Source: Candidatus Saccharimonadota bacterium | Lineage (GTDB): Bacteria > Patescibacteriota > Gracilibacteria > UBA1369 > 2-02-FULL-48-14 | Assembly (NCBI GenBank): GCA_016699145.1 | Contig: CP064962.1 | Coordinates: 510,001 to 542,000, forward strand | Length of the DNA stretch: 32,000 nucleotides | Direction: 5' to 3' | Part shown: positions 13,229 to 32,000 of the stretch, in pieces | How the letters are laid out: every line of letters starts with the position of its first letter | How positions within the stretch are numbered: the first letter of the stretch is position 1 | Program-made: the position numbers and the translations under genes | Notes under the pieces: generated by a model | Told to the model about the DNA's origin: nothing | The model's database searches: none | The model's input: only the letters and a program-made list of their open reading frames with translations

Positions 13229-13257
13229 TTGCAATCGAAGTTTTAGCACTCTATAAT
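13229..13257 (+). promoter_or_regulatory. Sigma-70-type promoter of clpB (TTGCAA-17 nt-TATAAT)
   Basis: TTGCAA is at 13229-13234, followed by a 17-nt spacer and TATAAT at 13252-13257. The -10 hexamer lies inside the CIRCE spacer. Confidence 0.6.
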
Positions 13258-13269
13258 GATGAGTGCTAA
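13243..13269 (+). promoter_or_regulatory. CIRCE operator (HrcA binding site), a perfect match to the consensus
   Basis: TTAGCACTC-tataatgat-GAGTGCTAA equals the consensus TTAGCACTC-N9-GAGTGCTAA. It ends 10 nt upstream of the clpB ATG at 13280. Confidence 0.85.
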
Positions 13270-24486: not shown

Positions 24487-25524
24487 ATGCGTGTTGCCAT
24501 CAATGGTTTTGGCCGAATCGGACGAATGATTTTTCGAGCCAATTTGATGAATCCTAAAATAGACATCGTGGCGGTGAACGACCTTGGCGATCCCACTCAA
24601 ACCGCGCACTTGCTCAAGTACGACTCCAGCTATGGCATCCTTCCCATGGACGTTAAAGGTGAACTGGGAAAACTCACCGTGACTCGACCCGACGGAGGCA
24701 AAACGGAAGTCGTGCTGGTACAAAATCGGGACCCATTGCTTTTGCCTTGGAAAGATTTAAACATCGACCTTGTCATTGAATGCACCGGGGCTTTCACCAG
24801 CCGCGAAGGAGCCAGCAAACACATCCAAGCCGGTGCCAAACGCGTTATGATCTCCGCTCCTGCCAAAGACGAAATCGATCATACTCTCGTGATGGGAGTG
24901 AACCACTTGGACTACAACCCCACCAAAGATTTCATCGTGTCCAACGCCAGTTGCACCACCAACTGTCTCGCACCGGTCGCCAAAGTGCTCAGCCAAAGTT
25001 TCGGCATCCAGCGAGGGCTCATGACCACTATCCATTCCTACACCAACGACCAAAATCTTTTGGACAACGATCACAAAGATCTGCGCCGCGCGCGGGCTGC
25101 AAACCTCAGCATGATTCCCACTTCCACAGGAGCCGCCAAAGCCATTGGACTTGTGCTGCCCGAGCTCGATAAGAAATTCCATGGCATCGCCATCCGCGTG
25201 CCCACCCCCGTGGTTTCTTTAGTGGATTTGACTGCAGAACTCAATCGAGAAGTCACCGCCGAAGAAGTGAATGCTGCCATGAAAGCTGCCTCCGAAACTC
25301 CCTTGGAACAAGGCGGTCTCAAAGGGATATTGGGCTACTGTGAGGCCCCTTTGGTTTCTGTCGATTTCAAAATGGATCCGCGTTCCAGCATCTTCGACGC
25401 GCTCGAAACCCAAGTGCTCGGCAAAACCGGCAACTTTATAAAAGTGCTTTCTTGGTACGACAACGAATGGGGCTACTCCATGCGCTGCATAGATTTGGCG
25501 GCCTATATGGAAAGTCGAGAGTGA
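24487..25524 (+). CDS. gap: Type I glyceraldehyde-3-phosphate dehydrogenase
   Basis: NAD-binding motif INGFGRIGR, active-site signature SNASCTTNCLAP, and the WYDNEWGYS C-terminal motif. Confidence 0.95.
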   Translation: MRVAINGFGRIGRMIFRANLMNPKIDIVAVNDLGDPTQTAHLLKYDSSYGILPMDVKGELGKLTVTRPDGGKTEVVLVQNRDPLLLPWKDLNIDLVIECTGAFTSREGASKHIQAGAKRVMISAPAKDEIDHTLVMGVNHLDYNPTKDFIVSNASCTTNCLAPVAKVLSQSFGIQRGLMTTIHSYTNDQNLLDNDHKDLRRARAANLSMIPTSTGAAKAIGLVLPELDKKFHGIAIRVPTPVVSLVDLTAELNREVTAEEVNAAMKAASETPLEQGGLKGILGYCEAPLVSVDFKMDPRSSIFDALETQVLGKTGNFIKVLSWYDNEWGYSMRCIDLAAYMESRE

Positions 25525-25536
25525 AAATTGATCTGT

Positions 25537-25560
25537 AAATTCCTCCCCGGGGAGGAATTT
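25537..25560 (+). terminator. Intrinsic terminator candidate after gap (24-bp perfect palindrome)
   Basis: AAATTCCTCCCCGGGGAGGAATTT starts 12 nt after the gap stop. It has a GC-rich stem core and its 3' arm ends in a T-run (GAGGAATTTTAA). Confidence 0.6.
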
Positions 25561-25585
25561 TAACCTGCAAGAAATTTTGGGTCAT

Positions 25586-25796
25586 TAGAGGCTATCTCAA
25601 AAAAAGGGAAGAGCAAGAACGCAGAGTGTTTTAAGCTGAAAGAGCTGAAGACGAAGGAGGCTTAGCTGGGCTAAGTCGACTGAGGATGAAGCTTTTGTAA
25701 GCAAAATAATCCAGTTCTTACCTTTAAGAGTAGAAAGGACGGGCACGAAATCAGTGCCGTCCTAAATACTCTGGTCTTTTTTTGAGATAGCCTCTA
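25586..25796. repeat. 211-bp element bounded by perfect 20-bp inverted repeats (candidate MITE-like insertion or structured ncRNA)
   Basis: Left arm TAGAGGCTATCTCAAAAAAA (25586-25605) is the exact reverse complement of right arm TTTTTTTGAGATAGCCTCTA (25777-25796). Internal hairpins are GGACGGGCAC-gaaatca-GTGCCGTCC (25737-25762) and CTTAGC-tgg-GCTAAG (25661-25675). There is no ORF. Confidence 0.6.
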
Positions 25797-25811
25797 TTCA
25801 CATAAGCACCC

Positions 25812-25840
25812 TTGCCCCTACCCTGGAAAGTCGCTATAAA
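25812..25840 (+). promoter_or_regulatory. Candidate hrcA promoter (TTGCCC-17 nt-TATAAA), geometry consistent with a leaderless mRNA
   Basis: TTGCCC is at 25812-25817 and TATAAA at 25835-25840. The hrcA ATG begins at 25847, only 6 nt after the -10 hexamer. Confidence 0.45.
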
Positions 25841-25846
25841 GGAAGC

Positions 25847-26572
25847 ATGAGCGAAGCACGTAAAAATCAAATCCTAAGTGCCATCATTGAGCATTTTGTT
25901 CAAACGGCAGAACCGGTGGGCTCAAAGACCATCATTTTGACTTACAATTTTAAAGTCAGTCCCGCAACCGTACGAAACGACATGGCTGATCTGGAAGAAC
26001 AAGGCCTCATCATGCAGCCTCACACCTCCGCCGGACGCATCCCCACCGACAAGGGGTATCGCCTTTATGTGGATGAACTCGCGGATTACGAACAAGCTCA
26101 AACATTGGCAGAACAAACTTTGGGCAAACTGTTGCACGCGCACCGCACCGAAAACGCCAAACAAAAAGTGCATGCAGCGGTGAGCCTGCTTTCTCAAGCG
26201 AGCCCCAACATGGCTTTCGCCACCATTCCCGACAACACCCGAACATTTTTCATGGGCTTTTCAAAAATGCTGCGCCAACCCGAATTCATGGAGGCACCTC
26301 TCAAAGCCAGCCAAGTCATGGAAGTGATTGAAGACCAAAATCACTTTTTAAAATCCTTGCAAAAAATCGATTTGGACCGGGAGCCGCGCATCCTCATTGG
26401 TGAAGAAAACTTGCTGCCCGGCATAGAAAGTTGCTCCATCATTTTTAGCCATTACAATTACGACGGCTACCAAGGCCTCATCGGCCTTTTGGGCCCCAAA
26501 CGCATGCCTTATGCCTACAACAGTTCTGTGCTCGGCAAAGTGCGCGATCTTTTAGAAAATAACCTTTTGTAA
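25847..26572 (+). CDS. hrcA: Heat-inducible transcription repressor HrcA (short, 241 aa)
   Basis: N-terminal winged-helix region ILSAIIEHFVQTAEPVGSKTI...SPATVRNDMADLEEQGLIMQPHTSAGRIPTDKGYRLYVD. The C-terminal GLIGLLGPKRMPY motif is also present. Confidence 0.9.
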   Translation: MSEARKNQILSAIIEHFVQTAEPVGSKTIILTYNFKVSPATVRNDMADLEEQGLIMQPHTSAGRIPTDKGYRLYVDELADYEQAQTLAEQTLGKLLHAHRTENAKQKVHAAVSLLSQASPNMAFATIPDNTRTFFMGFSKMLRQPEFMEAPLKASQVMEVIEDQNHFLKSLQKIDLDREPRILIGEENLLPGIESCSIIFSHYNYDGYQGLIGLLGPKRMPYAYNSSVLGKVRDLLENNLL

Positions 26573-27122: not shown

Positions 27123-30100
27123 ATGTCACGCCTCCCCTTCTTTAATAAAGTCCTCAAAGCCCTGTTCCTGCTGAGTATAGCGGTCTTTTTTCAATGGCAA
27201 ATGACGCAGAACGCTTCTGCGGCCACTCGAACCTGGGATGGCGGAGGAAGCACCAACAACTGGAGCGACTGTGTGAACTGGTCCAATGACACGTGTCCCA
27301 CCACAGCGGATGTGGCCACTTTCGACGCGACCTCTGTAAAAAATGCCACCCTCGACAATGGTTTCACGACCGGCGTCACCACCTTCAACATGAATACGGG
27401 TTACACCGGAATCATCACTCAAGGGCGCTCTTTCGTAGTGAGTGGAAACACCACCCTCGCTTCTGGAACTTTCAATGGAAACTCTGACGCCCTCACTTTC
27501 ACAGGAAGTTTTGGCCAGAGCGGAGGGGCCTTCAACGGCGGCGCTCAAAACGTGCTACACACGGGTGCTTTCACCATAAGTGGAGGTGCGTACACAGCCA
27601 GTTCTAGCACAACCACTTTTGCAGCTGCTTTCACCCACACCATAGGAGGAACCTTTAGTCACAATAACGGTACCGTCGTCTTCACAGGAGCCGCGGCAAC
27701 TATCAATGTCGCCACTACAGAAACCTTTCAAAACCTACAAGTCAATAAGAACAATGCTGTAAACTTAACGATCTCTTCCGGGGATACCTTAGTAGTTAAC
27801 GACACGACCACTCTCACCAATGGAGGTTTGGGTGGAACCGGAACCTTGAATGTGGCCAAATCCATTTCTGTGAATTCAGGATGGGATGGTTCCACAACTG
27901 GAACCATCAGCATCACTGGAACAGATGTTCAATCTTTATCCTTAAACGGAGACCAAGCTCGCCTTGCCGGAACCATCACTCTCAACAACCCGAACTTCAC
28001 CATCAATGGAACAGGATCAGGGACTTTGAACTTCAATATTCTCAATCTTCAAGCAGGTATCCTGGATGCCACAGGTTTCAGCCTAAGTGTGGCTAGCACC
28101 TTCTCTCAAAGCGGCGGAACTTTCACCGGAGGCTCAGGCACTGTGACACATACCGATGACTTCACCCTCAGCGCCGGCACCTACACCGCCACTTCTGGCA
28201 CCACCGATTTCGCAGCCGGCTTCACTCATACCGCCGGAGGAACGTTCAGCCACAATGAAGGCACCGTGGTTTTCTCGGGAGGAGCAGCAACCGTCAATGT
28301 GGCCACGAGTGAAACTTTTAAGAACTTGCAAATCAATAAAAACAACGCCACCAACTTAACCATTTCAGCCGGAGACACTTTGATTGTGGGTGCCACGACC
28401 ACTCTCACCAATGGAGGTTTGGGTGGAACCGGAACCTTGAACGTGGCCAAATCCATCTCTGTCGATTCAGGGTGGGATGGCTCAACCAATGGAACCATCA
28501 ACATCACTGGAACAGACGTTCAATCTTTATCCCTGAATGGAGACCAAGCTCGTCTCGCGGGAACCATCACCCTCAACAACCCGAACTTCACCATCAATGG
28601 AACAGGATCGGGTACTTTAAACTTCAATATTCTCAATCTCCAAGCAGGTACCGTGAATGCCACGGGTTTCAACCTCACTGTGGCCAGCACCTTCTCTCAA
28701 TCCGGGGGAGTCTTTACTGGAGGAAGCGGCACCATCACTCATACCAATAACTTCACTCTTTCCGGTGGGACTTACACTGCCAGCTCCGGAACCACCAACT
28801 TCGCAGGGGATTTTACTCGTACTGCAGGAGGAACTTTCACTCATAATAATGGAAGCATCGTCACAAATGGCGGCGCAAGCGCTTGGGATGTGACGGGTAC
28901 AGAAACCCTTCACAATCTTACGATCAATACCACAGGAACCAGTATCCTCACAGTGGTCAGCGGAGACACTTTAGTAATCGAGGGCACTTTGCTCCTACAA
29001 AATGGTCAATTCAGCGCGGGAACTTTAAGCGTGCAAGGAGACATGGTTGAAGAAGGCACTTGGGATGGAGGCACTTTAGGAGGCGAAATAAAAGTGGAAG
29101 GTACAGGTACACAAACGGTAACTTTGAATGCAGGAAGTATAGAACCCGCAAACACCTTCACCATCAACAACAGTGACGCCACGGTCAACGCACCGGGCAG
29201 TGGCAGCGCCTACTTCTGGCTCTTCAACCTTTCCGCAGGGACCTTCAATGGAAACGGCGCAACAATCACTATAGACAACACCTTCACTCAAAGCGGCGGG
29301 ACTTTCAATTCGAGCACAGCGAGCCTCAGTTTTTCAGTCAGTATGACTCAAAGTGGAGGAGCCTTTAATGGCAGCTCAGGAACCGTCACCTATGCCGCAG
29401 GTTTCACTCTCTCGGCAGGCACCTATACGGCCAGTTCCGGAACCACCTACTTTCAAGGAAATTTCACTCACACCGCAGGAGGAACCTTCAGCCACAATAA
29501 CGGCACCGTAGAATTCAACACCGCGGGCGACAGCACTTACAACGTAGCTAGCTCAGAGACCTTCAACCACGTGACTCTCAATAAAGCAGGTTCCAATGCG
29601 ACCATCTCTTCAGGAGACACCTTCATCGTATTGGGAAACCTAACTTTAAGCGATGGACGTTTCAATACTGGAACTTTGGAGATCTATGGCGACGTAAGCG
29701 TCGGAGCTGCTTACGATGCAGCCAGTTCTCCCATGATTTTTAGAGGATCCGCAACGCAAATCTTCACCCTGGGAATAGCAAACAGCATCAATGGGGACCT
29801 CACCATCAACAAAAATGGCGGGTCTGTGCAACAAAGTGGCGCTTTGATTTTAGATGCAAATTCTCAAGACCTCCTCATCACATTAGGCACTTACAACATC
29901 AATGGATCCGACTTAAGCGTGAATGGCACGTCGGGAACAATGGTCGTACAAAACGGTGGAATTTTCCAACTCCAAGGAGGGGAATCCATCACATTGAACG
30001 GAGGAAATCCAAGTTTACAAACAGGCAGCCTTGTGAAATACAACGGCGCGGCTGGCCCTTACACTCTTAAGGATTTCACCTACAAATCCTTAGAAATTGC

Positions 30101-32000
30101 GGGCGGAGCCAGTTCCATCTTTGCCTTGCCAGCCACCCTAAGCATCGGTGAAAACTTAAGCATCACTTCAGGAATTTTGCGCTTGGCAGGCAATGCACTC
30201 ACCGTGACGGGAACTTTTTCCAACACAGGCACCTTGCAATTGCAAGGGGGCGAAAGCGTAACTTTGACCAACGACAGCAATTCCGGAACAGTGGAATATG
30301 TGGGTGATGGAGACAGTGGAGCCGATGACTACACTTTAAAAAATTGGACTTATTACCATCTCAGCATCGCCACCACCGATGCCAACGATTCCATCACGGC
30401 TTCCACTTCCCCTGTCGACATCAATGGAAATCTTTCAATTTCGAATGGAACCTTCGTGGCCCCCACGGTCTTGAATCTCAGCGGAAATTTTGCACGCAGC
30501 GGAGGCACATTCAACCCCAATAGTGGAACCGTGGTTTTGAATGGCGGCAACCAAAGCATCAGCGGAACCCTCACTTTCAACAACCTCAGCAAAATCACCA
30601 GCTCAAGCGTCACTCTCACCTTACCCGCCAGTACCACTCTCACCATTACCGGCACCTTGACGCTCAAAGGAGTTTCCGGCCAGCTCCTCGCCCTTCGCAG
30701 CAGTTCCAATGACATGCAAGCCGTAATCGACGCACAAGGTTCACGCATCGTGGAATACCTCGACATAAAAGACAACAGCAACATCAATGCCACCGCGATT
30801 TCTTGTGGAAATTGTGTCAACAGTCTCAACAACAACGGCTGGAATTTCAACATCGCCAACATCAGCGTCAGTGCCATTTCAGGGAACACCACCGAAGCAG
30901 GCGGCACAGCCACTTTCACCGTAGTGCTCGACACCGAACCCAGCGCCGACGTTAGTTTCAATATCAGCAGCAGCGATACTAGCGAAGGCACCGTGTCCCC
31001 CTCCTCTCTCACTTTCACATCCGAAAATTGGGATACGCCTCAAACCGTCACCGTAACGGGAGTGAACGATGCTTTTGTGGACGGAGACATCAGCTTCAAC
31101 ATTGTGAATGGCAGCATCACTTCAGCAGATGGCGAGTACAACGGCTTGAATCCCAGCGACGTGAGTGTAACGAACACAGACAACGACATCATAGGCCTCA
31201 CCATCGTTGAATCCGGCGGTAACAGCGCTGTGACCGAAGGGGGAGCCACCGATTCTTACACCGTGGTTTTAAACACCGAACCCACCGACGACGTGACCGT
31301 GAGTTTCACCGTAGGTTCCCAAATTTCTTTGAGCAGTCCGAGCTTCATTTTCACCCCAGAAAATTGGGACGATCCGCAAACCCTCACTATCACCGCCGTC
31401 AATGACGCCATTGCCGAAGGAGCTCACTCCACCAACATTTCTCAAACAGTGTCCAGCAGCGACCCTCAATACGATGGCCTGGGTCTGAGCAGTATCAGCG
31501 TGGCCATCACCGATAACGACACCGCGGGCCTCACTGTCAGCGCCATTTCGGGCAACGTTTCTGAAGCCGGAACCACCGCCACTTTCACCGTAGTGCTCAC
31601 CTCTCAACCCATCGCAAACGTCAGCTTCAGCGTGATGAGCAGCGACACCACCGAAGGCACCGTATCCCCCAGCTCTCTAACCTTCACTTCCGAAAATTGG
31701 AGCACCCCCCAAACGGTCACCGTAACAGGGGCCAATGATTTTGTGGTGGATGGAAGCATTGCCTTCAGCATCGTGAATGGAAGCACCACTTCCGACGACT
31801 TGAATTACAGTGGCATAAATGTCAACGACGTGAGCCTCAACTGCAGCGACAACGACGTAGCCGGCTTCAGCGTCAGCGCCATTTCGGGCAACGTTTCTGA
31901 AAGCGGTAACACCGCGACCTACACTGTGGTCTTGATTTCAGAACCCACTGACGACGTGAGCTTCGACGTAGAAAGCAGCGACCTCAGCGAAGGCACTGTC
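27123..32000 (+). CDS. Secreted giant surface protein (partial; open to the window end): beta-helix-like repeats followed by Calx-beta-like modules
   Basis: The ATG at 27123 opens a frame that runs uninterrupted for 1626 codons to position 32000. It is absent from the ORF track because it has no stop in the window. Signal peptide: MSRLPFFNKVLKALFLLSIAVFFQWQMTQNASA. Gly/Thr/Asn-rich repeats (GGTFxGGSGTVTHT..FTLSAGTYTA.SGTT.F...FTHTAGGTFSHNNGTVVF) are followed, from about 30850, by roughly 110-aa modules (VSAISGN..EAGGTATFTVVL...PQTVTVTG.ND..VDG...DND). Confidence 0.85.
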   Translation, partial: MSRLPFFNKVLKALFLLSIAVFFQWQMTQNASAATRTWDGGGSTNNWSDCVNWSNDTCPTTADVATFDATSVKNATLDNGFTTGVTTFNMNTGYTGIITQGRSFVVSGNTTLASGTFNGNSDALTFTGSFGQSGGAFNGGAQNVLHTGAFTISGGAYTASSSTTTFAAAFTHTIGGTFSHNNGTVVFTGAAATINVATTETFQNLQVNKNNAVNLTISSGDTLVVNDTTTLTNGGLGGTGTLNVAKSISVNSGWDGSTTGTISITGTDVQSLSLNGDQARLAGTITLNNPNFTINGTGSGTLNFNILNLQAGILDATGFSLSVASTFSQSGGTFTGGSGTVTHTDDFTLSAGTYTATSGTTDFAAGFTHTAGGTFSHNEGTVVFSGGAATVNVATSETFKNLQINKNNATNLTISAGDTLIVGATTTLTNGGLGGTGTLNVAKSISVDSGWDGSTNGTINITGTDVQSLSLNGDQARLAGTITLNNPNFTINGTGSGTLNFNILNLQAGTVNATGFNLTVASTFSQSGGVFTGGSGTITHTNNFTLSGGTYTASSGTTNFAGDFTRTAGGTFTHNNGSIVTNGGASAWDVTGTETLHNLTINTTGTSILTVVSGDTLVIEGTLLLQNGQFSAGTLSVQGDMVEEGTWDGGTLGGEIKVEGTGTQTVTLNAGSIEPANTFTINNSDATVNAPGSGSAYFWLFNLSAGTFNGNGATITIDNTFTQSGGTFNSSTASLSFSVSMTQSGGAFNGSSGTVTYAAGFTLSAGTYTASSGTTYFQGNFTHTAGGTFSHNNGTVEFNTAGDSTYNVASSETFNHVTLNKAGSNATISSGDTFIVLGNLTLSDGRFNTGTLEIYGDVSVGAAYDAASSPMIFRGSATQIFTLGIANSINGDLTINKNGGSVQQSGALILDANSQDLLITLGTYNINGSDLSVNGTSGTMVVQNGGIFQLQGGESITLNGGNPSLQTGSLVKYNGAAGPYTLKDFTYKSLEIAGGASSIFALPATLSIGENLSITSGILRLAGNALTVTGTFSNTGTLQLQGGESVTLTNDSNSGTVEYVGDGDSGADDYTLKNWTYYHLSIATTDANDSITASTSPVDINGNLSISNGTFVAPTVLNLSGNFARSGGTFNPNSGTVVLNGGNQSISGTLTFNNLSKITSSSVTLTLPASTTLTITGTLTLKGVSGQLLALRSSSNDMQAVIDAQGSRIVEYLDIKDNSNINATAISCGNCVNSLNNNGWNFNIANISVSAISGNTTEAGGTATFTVVLDTEPSADVSFNISSSDTSEGTVSPSSLTFTSENWDTPQTVTVTGVNDAFVDGDISFNIVNGSITSADGEYNGLNPSDVSVTNTDNDIIGLTIVESGGNSAVTEGGATDSYTVVLNTEPTDDVTVSFTVGSQISLSSPSFIFTPENWDDPQTLTITAVNDAIAEGAHSTNISQTVSSSDPQYDGLGLSSISVAITDNDTAGLTVSAISGNVSEAGTTATFTVVLTSQPIANVSFSVMSSDTTEGTVSPSSLTFTSENWSTPQTVTVTGANDFVVDGSIAFSIVNGSTTSDDLNYSGINVNDVSLNCSDNDVAGFSVSAISGNVSESGNTATYTVVLISEPTDDVSFDVESSDLSEGTV
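27522..28703 (+). repeat. Two tandem copies of a 591-bp (197-codon) unit inside the surface-protein gene, followed by more diverged copies
   Basis: Copy A (27522-28112) starts GGAFNGG and copy B (28113-28703) starts GGTFTGG. Long near-identical stretches occur, e.g. ACCACTCTCACCAATGGAGGTTTGGGTGGAACCGGAACCTTGAA at 27803 and 28394. Antisense shadow ORFs sit at the same offset (27916 vs 28507). Confidence 0.9.

Follow-up and report, generated by a model that had tools for sequence, protein, structure and literature searches.

We conclude with high confidence that the 211-bp element between the genes for GAPDH (gap, 24487-25524) and HrcA (25847-26572, followed by GrpE) is a non-autonomous DNA transposon (MITE) with IS5-family termini, and that it is a young and probably neutral copy. 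Coordinates are those of the window, the whole stretch of 32,000 nucleotides that was analyzed, unless they are marked as genome positions; the genome is a single contig of 1.339 Mb with 46.8% GC and belongs to Peribacteria. Five features of a MITE were found: inverted repeats, a small size without a transposase ORF, dispersed copies, a TA duplication with empty sites at sister copies, and termini of the IS type. The initial annotation had proposed a MITE-like insertion as one reading of the element, and this reading was borne out, because the element is multi-copy, flanked by TA, absent from congeners, and has a terminus in common with IS5-family insertion sequences. A candidate novel RNA is thereby removed and the element is filed as a mobile element. 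In addition, the control region of hrcA is corrected to a leaderless promoter without CIRCE, and the decayed ends of the MITE family were found to be linked, statistically strongly, to the leaderless promoter grammar of the genome. To our knowledge, MITE-type elements are scarcely described in this phylum, and CPR bacteria are very poorly characterized with respect to their mobile DNA and promoter architecture.

Structure of the element in the window

The element (25586-25796) is bounded by a perfect inverted repeat. The sequence TAGAGGCTATCTCAAAAAAA at 25586-25605 has its exact reverse complement at 25777-25796, as had been described, and the one further inward G-C pair that had been noticed is the pair 25606/25776, which extends the arms from 20 to 21 bp. 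The left arm (25586-25606, plus strand) consists of TA followed by GAGGCTATCTCAAAAAAAG, and the right arm (25776-25796, minus strand) is its exact reverse complement. In dinucleotide-preserving shuffles 0.01 inverted-repeat matches were expected while two were observed, in agreement with the earlier judgment that the repeat is improbable by chance. The core between the arms is non-coding and folds strongly. It had been described as free of ORFs, and nothing of note was found inside, the sole ORF being a 49-aa GTG frame on the minus strand. The minimum-energy fold of a 223-nt stretch on the plus strand had an energy of -95 kcal/mol (z = -8.4), with a similar z on the minus strand, and all inner helices of the initial annotation (25737-25762, 25661-25675, and 25615-25620 with 25714-25719) were present in it.

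Read on the plus strand, the interior starts with a left subterminal region, GGGAAGAGCAAGAAC... (25607-25632), which is retained in the left type of solo ends described below. It is followed by a 56-nt central hairpin module (25633-25688) with the direct repeat AAGCT at its borders. A bulged GC-rich hairpin lies in the right subterminal part (25737-25762). The right subterminal motif CTCTGGTC (GACCAGAG on the other strand) lies at 25768-25775, is retained in the right type of solo ends, and would cover roughly -38 to -31 in a promoter directed outward. The junction hexamers of this copy are TAATGA and TATTCA; thus neither end forms TAnnnT with its flank.

The whole element is best described as a 207-bp MITE plus one extra TA, the target duplication. 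The MITE itself would be 207 bp of non-coding DNA with terminal inverted repeats of 18-19 bp (GAGGCTATCTCAAAAAAA(G)) and a duplicated TA at its flanks. The putative 2-bp duplication consists of the TA at 25795-25796 and its partner at 25586-25587, assigned here by analogy with the sister copies, at which it was shown.

Repeat family in the genome

Five copies of about 211 bp were found, at genome positions 535586 (the window copy), 386734, 1146268, 177173, and 875721. Identity to the window copy was 100% (1 mismatch) for 386734, 93% for 1146268 and for 177173, and 89% for 875721. The copy at 386734 differs from the window copy at only 1 of 211 nucleotides, a private G-to-A substitution at 25720 on the plus strand (alignment column 146), and its flanks are unrelated. 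This single difference indicates recent movement or gene conversion. Two further variants of 155 bp, at genome 901437 and 1018839, lack the AAGCT-bounded module of 56 nt in the alignment. The long copies are dispersed in unrelated contexts, in both orientations relative to the neighbor genes, and in every one of them the outer TA is the exact limit of homology in the alignment, with unrelated flanks beyond it.

Shorter derivatives are more numerous. Together with mini forms of 60-95 nt and solo ends, the genome holds 53 ends of the family (7 long copies, 9 mini-form ends, and about 30 solo ends), which, being related copies, are not fully independent events. The check for multiple copies proposed earlier to separate a MITE from a single conserved locus was thus answered in favor of a MITE. 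Solo ends retain only 22-35 nt, mostly 26-28 nt in the right type, and carry either the left motif (GGGAAGAGCAAGAAC) or the right motif (GACCAGAG). The terminus itself occurs in two variants, ATCTC and AAGTC; both arms of the 875721 copy have AAGTC, which is also found in a set of solo ends.

Several side observations concern the ends. The two youngest copies, which are 1 nt apart, have an identical TTCAC outside the right TA (25797-25801 in the window, 386945-386949 in the genome), and their flanks otherwise differ beyond it. Coincidence (about 1 in 1000) might explain the common TTCAC, as might a preferred target or a remnant of gene conversion. At several ends (genome 386734, 704853, 102761, 824285, 1260707, and 1333349) a gene that reads inward terminates at the TAG of the terminus, the stop being regenerated when an insertion hits the TA of a stop codon. 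Another frame of the terminus encodes ..LEAISKK.. and adds short C-terminal tails, for example to a 122-aa ORF that ends at genome 177363.

Absence from relatives and empty sites

Five congeners (G001 to G005) were searched for the MITE family. No match was obtained in G001, G002, G004, and G005, and G003 had one solo end. When the terminus was searched with one mismatch allowed in a 200-genome sample of the class, 32 matches were in the genome under study and 0-1 in each of the others.

The junction of gap and hrcA is variable within the genus. The spacer is 17 nt in G002 and G004, where the -10 of hrcA (TATACT / TAAACT) directly follows the gap stop codon, and an extra reverse-strand gene of 0.7-1.2 kb is present at the junction in G001, G003, and G005. 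Since the congeners have either the 17-nt spacer or the extra gene, the MITE and the hairpin repeat that precedes it are additions in the lineage of the present genome. No exact empty site could be reconstructed for the window copy, which has TA at its flanks, because the spacer is not alignable with that of the relatives. An exact-protein look-up of HrcA for strain variants with or without the insertion found none on record.

Empty sites were available for two sister copies. Opposite the full copy at genome 875721-875929, G003 has CATgcgcgcagtcTAgatcaaagATG; this site reads CATgcgcgcagtc-TA-gatcaaagATG between two divergent genes, and the full element stands between the same genes in the genome under study. 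For the copy at 1018839-1018992, the sequence ..ctTA[TAGAGG..CCTCTA]gtcaaaagcc corresponds to ..gtTAtat/a-caaaagcc in G004 and G003, and deletion of GAGG..CCTC together with one TA recovers the exact 13-nt spacing of the empty site. This exact spacing indicates that the outer TA is a 2-bp target duplication. The initial annotation had not been able to identify a target-site duplication; by the sister-copy empty sites it is the outermost TA of each arm.

The lone solo end of G003 (C17:4269) and the solo end at genome 3959 have an identical outer flank, gatgtgcatggat.. (L034/L038). The end in G003 is of the left type with ATCTC, and the other is of the right type with AAGTC. Either an ancestral interior was inverted or one TA was hit twice.

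Termini and IS parentage

The exact 20-mer terminus also bounds 144-nt MITEs with a wholly different interior in a Desulfobacterales MAG. Near-identical termini (up to 2 mismatches) were found in 20-40 copies each in four unrelated MAGs (two of Desulfobacterales/Desulfobacteraceae, one groundwater deltaproteobacterium, and one Bacteroidetes), against 0 for a reversed control. In some of the copies in other phyla, an ORF starting with MELTDEQWNRIEP.. follows the terminus. A scan with the left end led to a complete insertion sequence of 842 bp (L082:2847-3688, Deltaproteobacteria MAG, CP070652.1) with the termini TAGAAGCTATCTCAAAAAA and TAGAAGCCATCTCAAAAAT, which differ from the window terminus by 1-3 changes. 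It has two overlapping ORFs, one of 148 and one of 133 aa, with matches to PF13340 (DUF4096), PF01609 (DDE_Tnp_1), and the NCBIfam model NF033580 (IS5 family). By the ISfinder subgroup criteria (800-1000 bp, two frameshifted ORFs, a 2-4-bp duplication), this element would belong to the IS427 subgroup. Autonomous elements with the window-type terminus were found in L082, L084, and L087, that is, in other phyla only. The 20-nt terminus is identical to the one borne by IS5-family elements of Desulfobacterota and Bacteroidota, an indication of transfer between phyla. Compared with the YTAR-type targets of the IS427 group, the flanks are CTAG or CTAA-like at several sites, TTAT at the window copy, and TA-R-Y in the copies of other phyla.

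As side observations, the terminus TAGA(A/G)GC(T/C)ATCTCAAAAA was found around five or more unrelated, strongly self-pairing interiors (125-210 nt) in MAGs of Desulfobacterota and Bacteroidota (L050-L079), and a related terminus, TAGAAGCGGTTTCAAAAC, bounds another MITE beside an IS630 gene in L080.

A cognate transposase with the window-type terminus was not found in the genome under study, which counts against the MITE reading. This genome is unusually IS-rich for 1.34 Mb, with families of about 855 bp (about 11 copies), 560 bp (about 12), 956 bp (about 9), 1075-1150 bp (about 15), and 1281 bp (about 4); all were rejected as parent of the MITE because their terminus differs. The 855-bp IS, with 11 copies, is the sole resident IS5/IS427-like element and matches the same NCBIfam model as the 842-bp IS; its terminus TAGGAGCTGTTAACATAA has about 8 of 16 positions in common, and its transposase is 27% identical to OrfA of the 842-bp IS. 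The 560-bp family is IS200-like, with a Y1 transposase and hairpin ends, and it interrupts two of the 855-bp copies (genome 378579-379909 and 426001-427402).

Parentage by IS630 / Tc1-mariner, suggested by the TA flanks, was also rejected. PF13358 (DDE_3) is absent from the genome under study and from three of the four other terminus-rich genomes; the lone IS630 gene, in the remaining MAG, lies beside the repeats and not inside them, and the repeats that flank it are separate MITEs. An apparent terminus match beside a DDE gene at genome 44184 proved to be a fragment of just 14 nt, located where a gene for a membrane protein has its stop codon. Two metagenome scans with the subterminal left and right motifs gave 0 hits each, and a literature search with the terminus string returned unrelated matches only.

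From these comparisons, the autonomous form would be an element of about 840 bp, found elsewhere, with overlapping DUF4096 and DDE_Tnp_1 ORFs in the layout of the IS427 group. A DDE transposase supplied in trans would bind both termini and integrate the element at TA. The cognate IS may have been lost, or the resident 855-bp IS may cross-mobilize the element.

Function of the window copy

On the best-supported reading, the insertion in the window is selfish and at present neutral, and it occupies a dispensable spacer. It would be a young insertion, separated by 1 substitution from its nearest sister and probably neutral, in a lineage-specific spacer that has the terminator-like hairpin of gap on one side and the intact leaderless hrcA promoter on the other.

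The alternative that survives best accepts the MITE and adds an acquired local role in cis. Read-through from gap would produce a 21-bp dsRNA stem that could serve as an RNase III site, a 3' stabilizer, or an insulator. The fold is very stable on both strands, the element lies between the terminator-like hairpin and the hrcA promoter, and the inverted repeats of Correia elements, when transcribed, are known RNase III substrates (PMC10969869). That the read-through stem might be processed like Correia repeats is speculation by analogy (PMC10969869). However, this copy is young and absent from congeners, two congeners do with a spacer of 17 nt, a separate terminator-like hairpin is already present upstream of the element, and neither of its ends forms TAnnnT with the flank. 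We consider a cis role improbable.

A structured small RNA gene, 6S-like or another regulatory RNA with paired 5' and 3' ends, was the other reading of the initial annotation. The element is like 6S RNA (RF00013) in its length of about 200 nt and in the long helix that closes its 5' and 3' ends over a branched interior, with the z of -8.4 given above. The RF00013 model also found no bona fide 6S elsewhere in the genome, a search of limited reach, as the model found 6S in only 5 of 14 control genomes. Unlike 6S RNA, the element has no match to the model, is multi-copy, is absent from congeners, and lacks a defined promoter and terminator; no promoter-like driving site was seen on either strand. 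A check against Rfam had been proposed, and it gave no match over the element: none in the whole window at gathering thresholds, and only chance-level hits outside the element when 25450-25900 was searched at E up to 10. A scan for tRNA and tmRNA with ARAGORN found none. Covariation, also proposed as a check, was seen at the two termini alone: of the 78 predicted pairs no more than 2 covary in the family, both of them as ATCTC/AAGTC, and the RNAalifold covariation term was unfavorable. Furthermore, the five to seven copies are dispersed in unrelated contexts and in both orientations relative to neighbors, neither the class sample nor four of the five congeners contain the element, and an internal deletion of 56 nt was tolerated. 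As both strands of the element are much more stably folded than shuffled sequence, an RNA role, if it is transcribed, keeps some small likelihood, and this is a point against the MITE reading; we regard an RNA gene as very unlikely. A fortuitous or decaying palindrome that was never mobile, which only the lack of a resident cognate transposase would favor, is practically refuted by the copy number (53 family ends) and the sister-copy empty sites with TA duplication, and also by the 0.01 matches expected in shuffles and a terminus common to IS in other phyla.

The hrcA control region and leaderless promoters

The initial annotation placed the element where the CIRCE-regulated promoter region of hrcA would be expected. 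No CIRCE was found at hrcA or at the position of the element, and a conserved sigma-70-type leaderless promoter of hrcA lies between the element and the ATG. Promoter and start (25812-25849, plus strand) comprise a -35 TTGCCC (25812-25817), a 17-nt spacer, a -10 TATAAA (25835-25840), six nucleotides, and the ATG at 25847. The arrangement TTGnnC-N17-TATAAA-N6/7-ATG is conserved upstream of hrcA in G001, G003, and G005, and the hrcA promoter agrees with the leaderless profile of the whole genome given below. The end of the element is 15 bp from the -35, so that the predicted promoter is undisturbed.

A perfect CIRCE, TTAGCACTC-TATAATGAT-GAGTGCTAA, was found instead at 13243-13269, over the start of clpB. 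Its spacer contains TATAAT and it overlaps the ATG (13256) of an 849-aa ClpB-like gene, which makes it an HrcA operator on a promoter of the leaderless type. Further CIRCE-like sites are at genome 543989, 887111, and 81283.

Genome-wide, 102 of 1013 long ORFs, with gene starts called by a simple ORF rule, have TAnnnT at -12 from the first ATG, compared with about 20 at neighboring offsets. In these genes TTG occupies -35 to -33, the spacer is 17 nt long, TAnnnT spans -12 to -7, and position -1 is a pyrimidine. Judged from this pattern in the sequence, TTG-N17-TAnnnT-N6-ATG is the predicted leaderless promoter grammar of about 100-128 genes. TAnnnT has another, broader peak at -33 to -26, which marks genes with short leaders.

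Solo ends at promoters

At the junction of solo ends, the terminal TA and the four adjacent flank bases form TAnnnT in 26 of 30 cases, against a background of 0.262 (binomial P = 6e-12). Of the four exceptions, three are without a recognizable subterminal motif, and in three an inward gene has its stop codon at the TAG of the terminus. TAnnnT was present at only 4 of 14 ends of long copies (Fisher P = 2.5e-4 versus solo ends) and at 12 of 45 ends with the same terminus in other phyla (P = 3e-7 versus solo ends), where the flank is TA-R-Y. As both of these fractions are at background, an intrinsic target preference was not supported as the cause of TAnnnT at solo ends.

The solo ends also point at genes. 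Outward of 21 of the 30 solo ends, at a distance of 9-45 nt, an ORF of 80 aa or more starts with ATG, compared with a background of 14.5% (P about 1e-10), and at 9-10 of them the distance is exactly 10 nt, the leaderless register, with TA at -12/-11. The orthologous promoters of congeners have a native TAGAAT, TAAACT, or TAGTCT at the same place with unrelated upstream sequence; since they lack the terminus, the possibility that the terminus is a native operator or promoter motif of the genus was rejected. The two long copies for which empty sites exist are likewise located at the TA in position -12 of a leaderless gene.

In this register, the element would contribute the upstream half, namely a spacer of 17-18 nt together with a -35-like hexamer (CTGGTC or CTTCCC) that is weak. 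Scored with a PWM built from 118 native promoters, the element-derived halves had a mean of 0.14, intermediate between 1.27 for native promoters and -2.16 for random sequence. The TAnnnT junctions and the register of the solo ends suggest that decayed ends may have been kept as promoter halves.

Decay would proceed by internal deletion of long copies, from 211 to 155, then to 60-95, and finally to 22-35 nt. The single ends that survive appear, almost without exception, to be those in which the terminal TA starts the -10 hexamer of the adjacent gene. Because surviving ends mostly start -10 hexamers, promoter replacement is a likely consequence of insertion, as far as can be judged from position. 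Insertions would land on TA; where this is the TA of a -10, the gene would then depend on the end of the element, and deletion would strip away all but that end. We give this sequence of insertion on TA, dependence of the gene, and trimming to the end roughly even odds as a reading of the solo-end pattern.

A broader proposal, that the MITE family rewired promoters wholesale, is tentative and in our view falls slightly short of an even chance. According to it, insertion at a -10 TA displaced the native -35 and spacer, the last 26-35 nt of the element may now serve about 20-26 genes, many of them leaderless, and the copies have since been trimmed to that piece. If this is true, the solo ends amount to a series of natural deletions that maps a promoter carried by a transposon, with the window copy as the intact source form. 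If the ends drive transcription, they would exemplify with unusual clarity how transposons can drive promoter turnover in a minimal genome.

Comparison with known elements

The family in the window is a new family of a known kind, the MITE. Its closest counterparts are the IS5-family elements of Desulfobacterota and Bacteroidota, namely the 842-bp IS and MITEs of about 145 bp, with which the terminal 19-20 nt, TAGA(A/G)GC(T/C)ATCTCAAAAAA, are the same. Those MITEs are likewise small, non-coding, strongly self-pairing, and multi-copy, with TA at the outer ends. They differ in that the interior and subterminal sequence beyond position 20 is unrelated, and in that the host of the window family is a CPR bacterium (Peribacteria) without a cognate transposase. 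Unlike the solo ends of the window family, the copies in other phyla show the TA-R-Y flank preference and TAnnnT at background level (the 12 of 45 noted above).

The idea that the ends of mobile elements form promoters has a precedent in hybrid promoters, in which the end of an IS carries an outward -35 and the flank contributes the -10; classically, these are single selected events with a full-length IS. The solo ends are similar in that they are proposed as the upstream half, with the rest of the -10 coming from the flank. In contrast to the classical cases, about 26 decayed ends occur in one 1.3-Mb genome in the same exact register and with weak -35-like hexamers.

MITEs that duplicate TA and carry promoters in their ends are a familiar class, including Correia, MITEAba12, BrickBuilt, and QMITE1 (PMC10969869). 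Correia elements of Neisseria are MITEs of 100-200 bp with TA duplication and long perfect inverted repeats, often located just upstream of genes; their ends carry sigma-70-like promoter parts able to drive neighbors, and their interior can invert (PMC10969869). The window family has no sequence similarity to Correia elements, and its promoter activity is only inferred. It also differs in its leaderless arrangement, with the duplication TA at -12/-11 from the ATG, and in that its promoter-associated members are mostly solo ends of 22-35 nt and not whole elements.

Neighboring repeats and genes

A perfect 24-nt palindrome, AAATTCCTCCCCGGGGAGGAATTT (25537-25560), follows the stop codon of gap. 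It is separate from the MITE and is a member of another repeat family, which has about 10 copies. The unit of this family is about 60 nt around AAAYYCCTCCCCGGGGAGGRRTTT, occurs in both orientations, and has the conserved flanks ..GATCTGT and TAACCTGTAAAAA. Besides 25524-25574 in the window, it was found at genome 443910, 483666, 499140, 561402, 724209, 779178, 803196, 859079, and 867465. The stem shows compensatory variants (AAATTCC/GGAATTT versus AAACCCC/GGGGTTT), and the family looks like a REP-like or bidirectional terminator element.

On the other side of hrcA, just past grpE, an ORF of more than 1626 aa (27123-32000) runs off the end of the window and would encode a giant protein.
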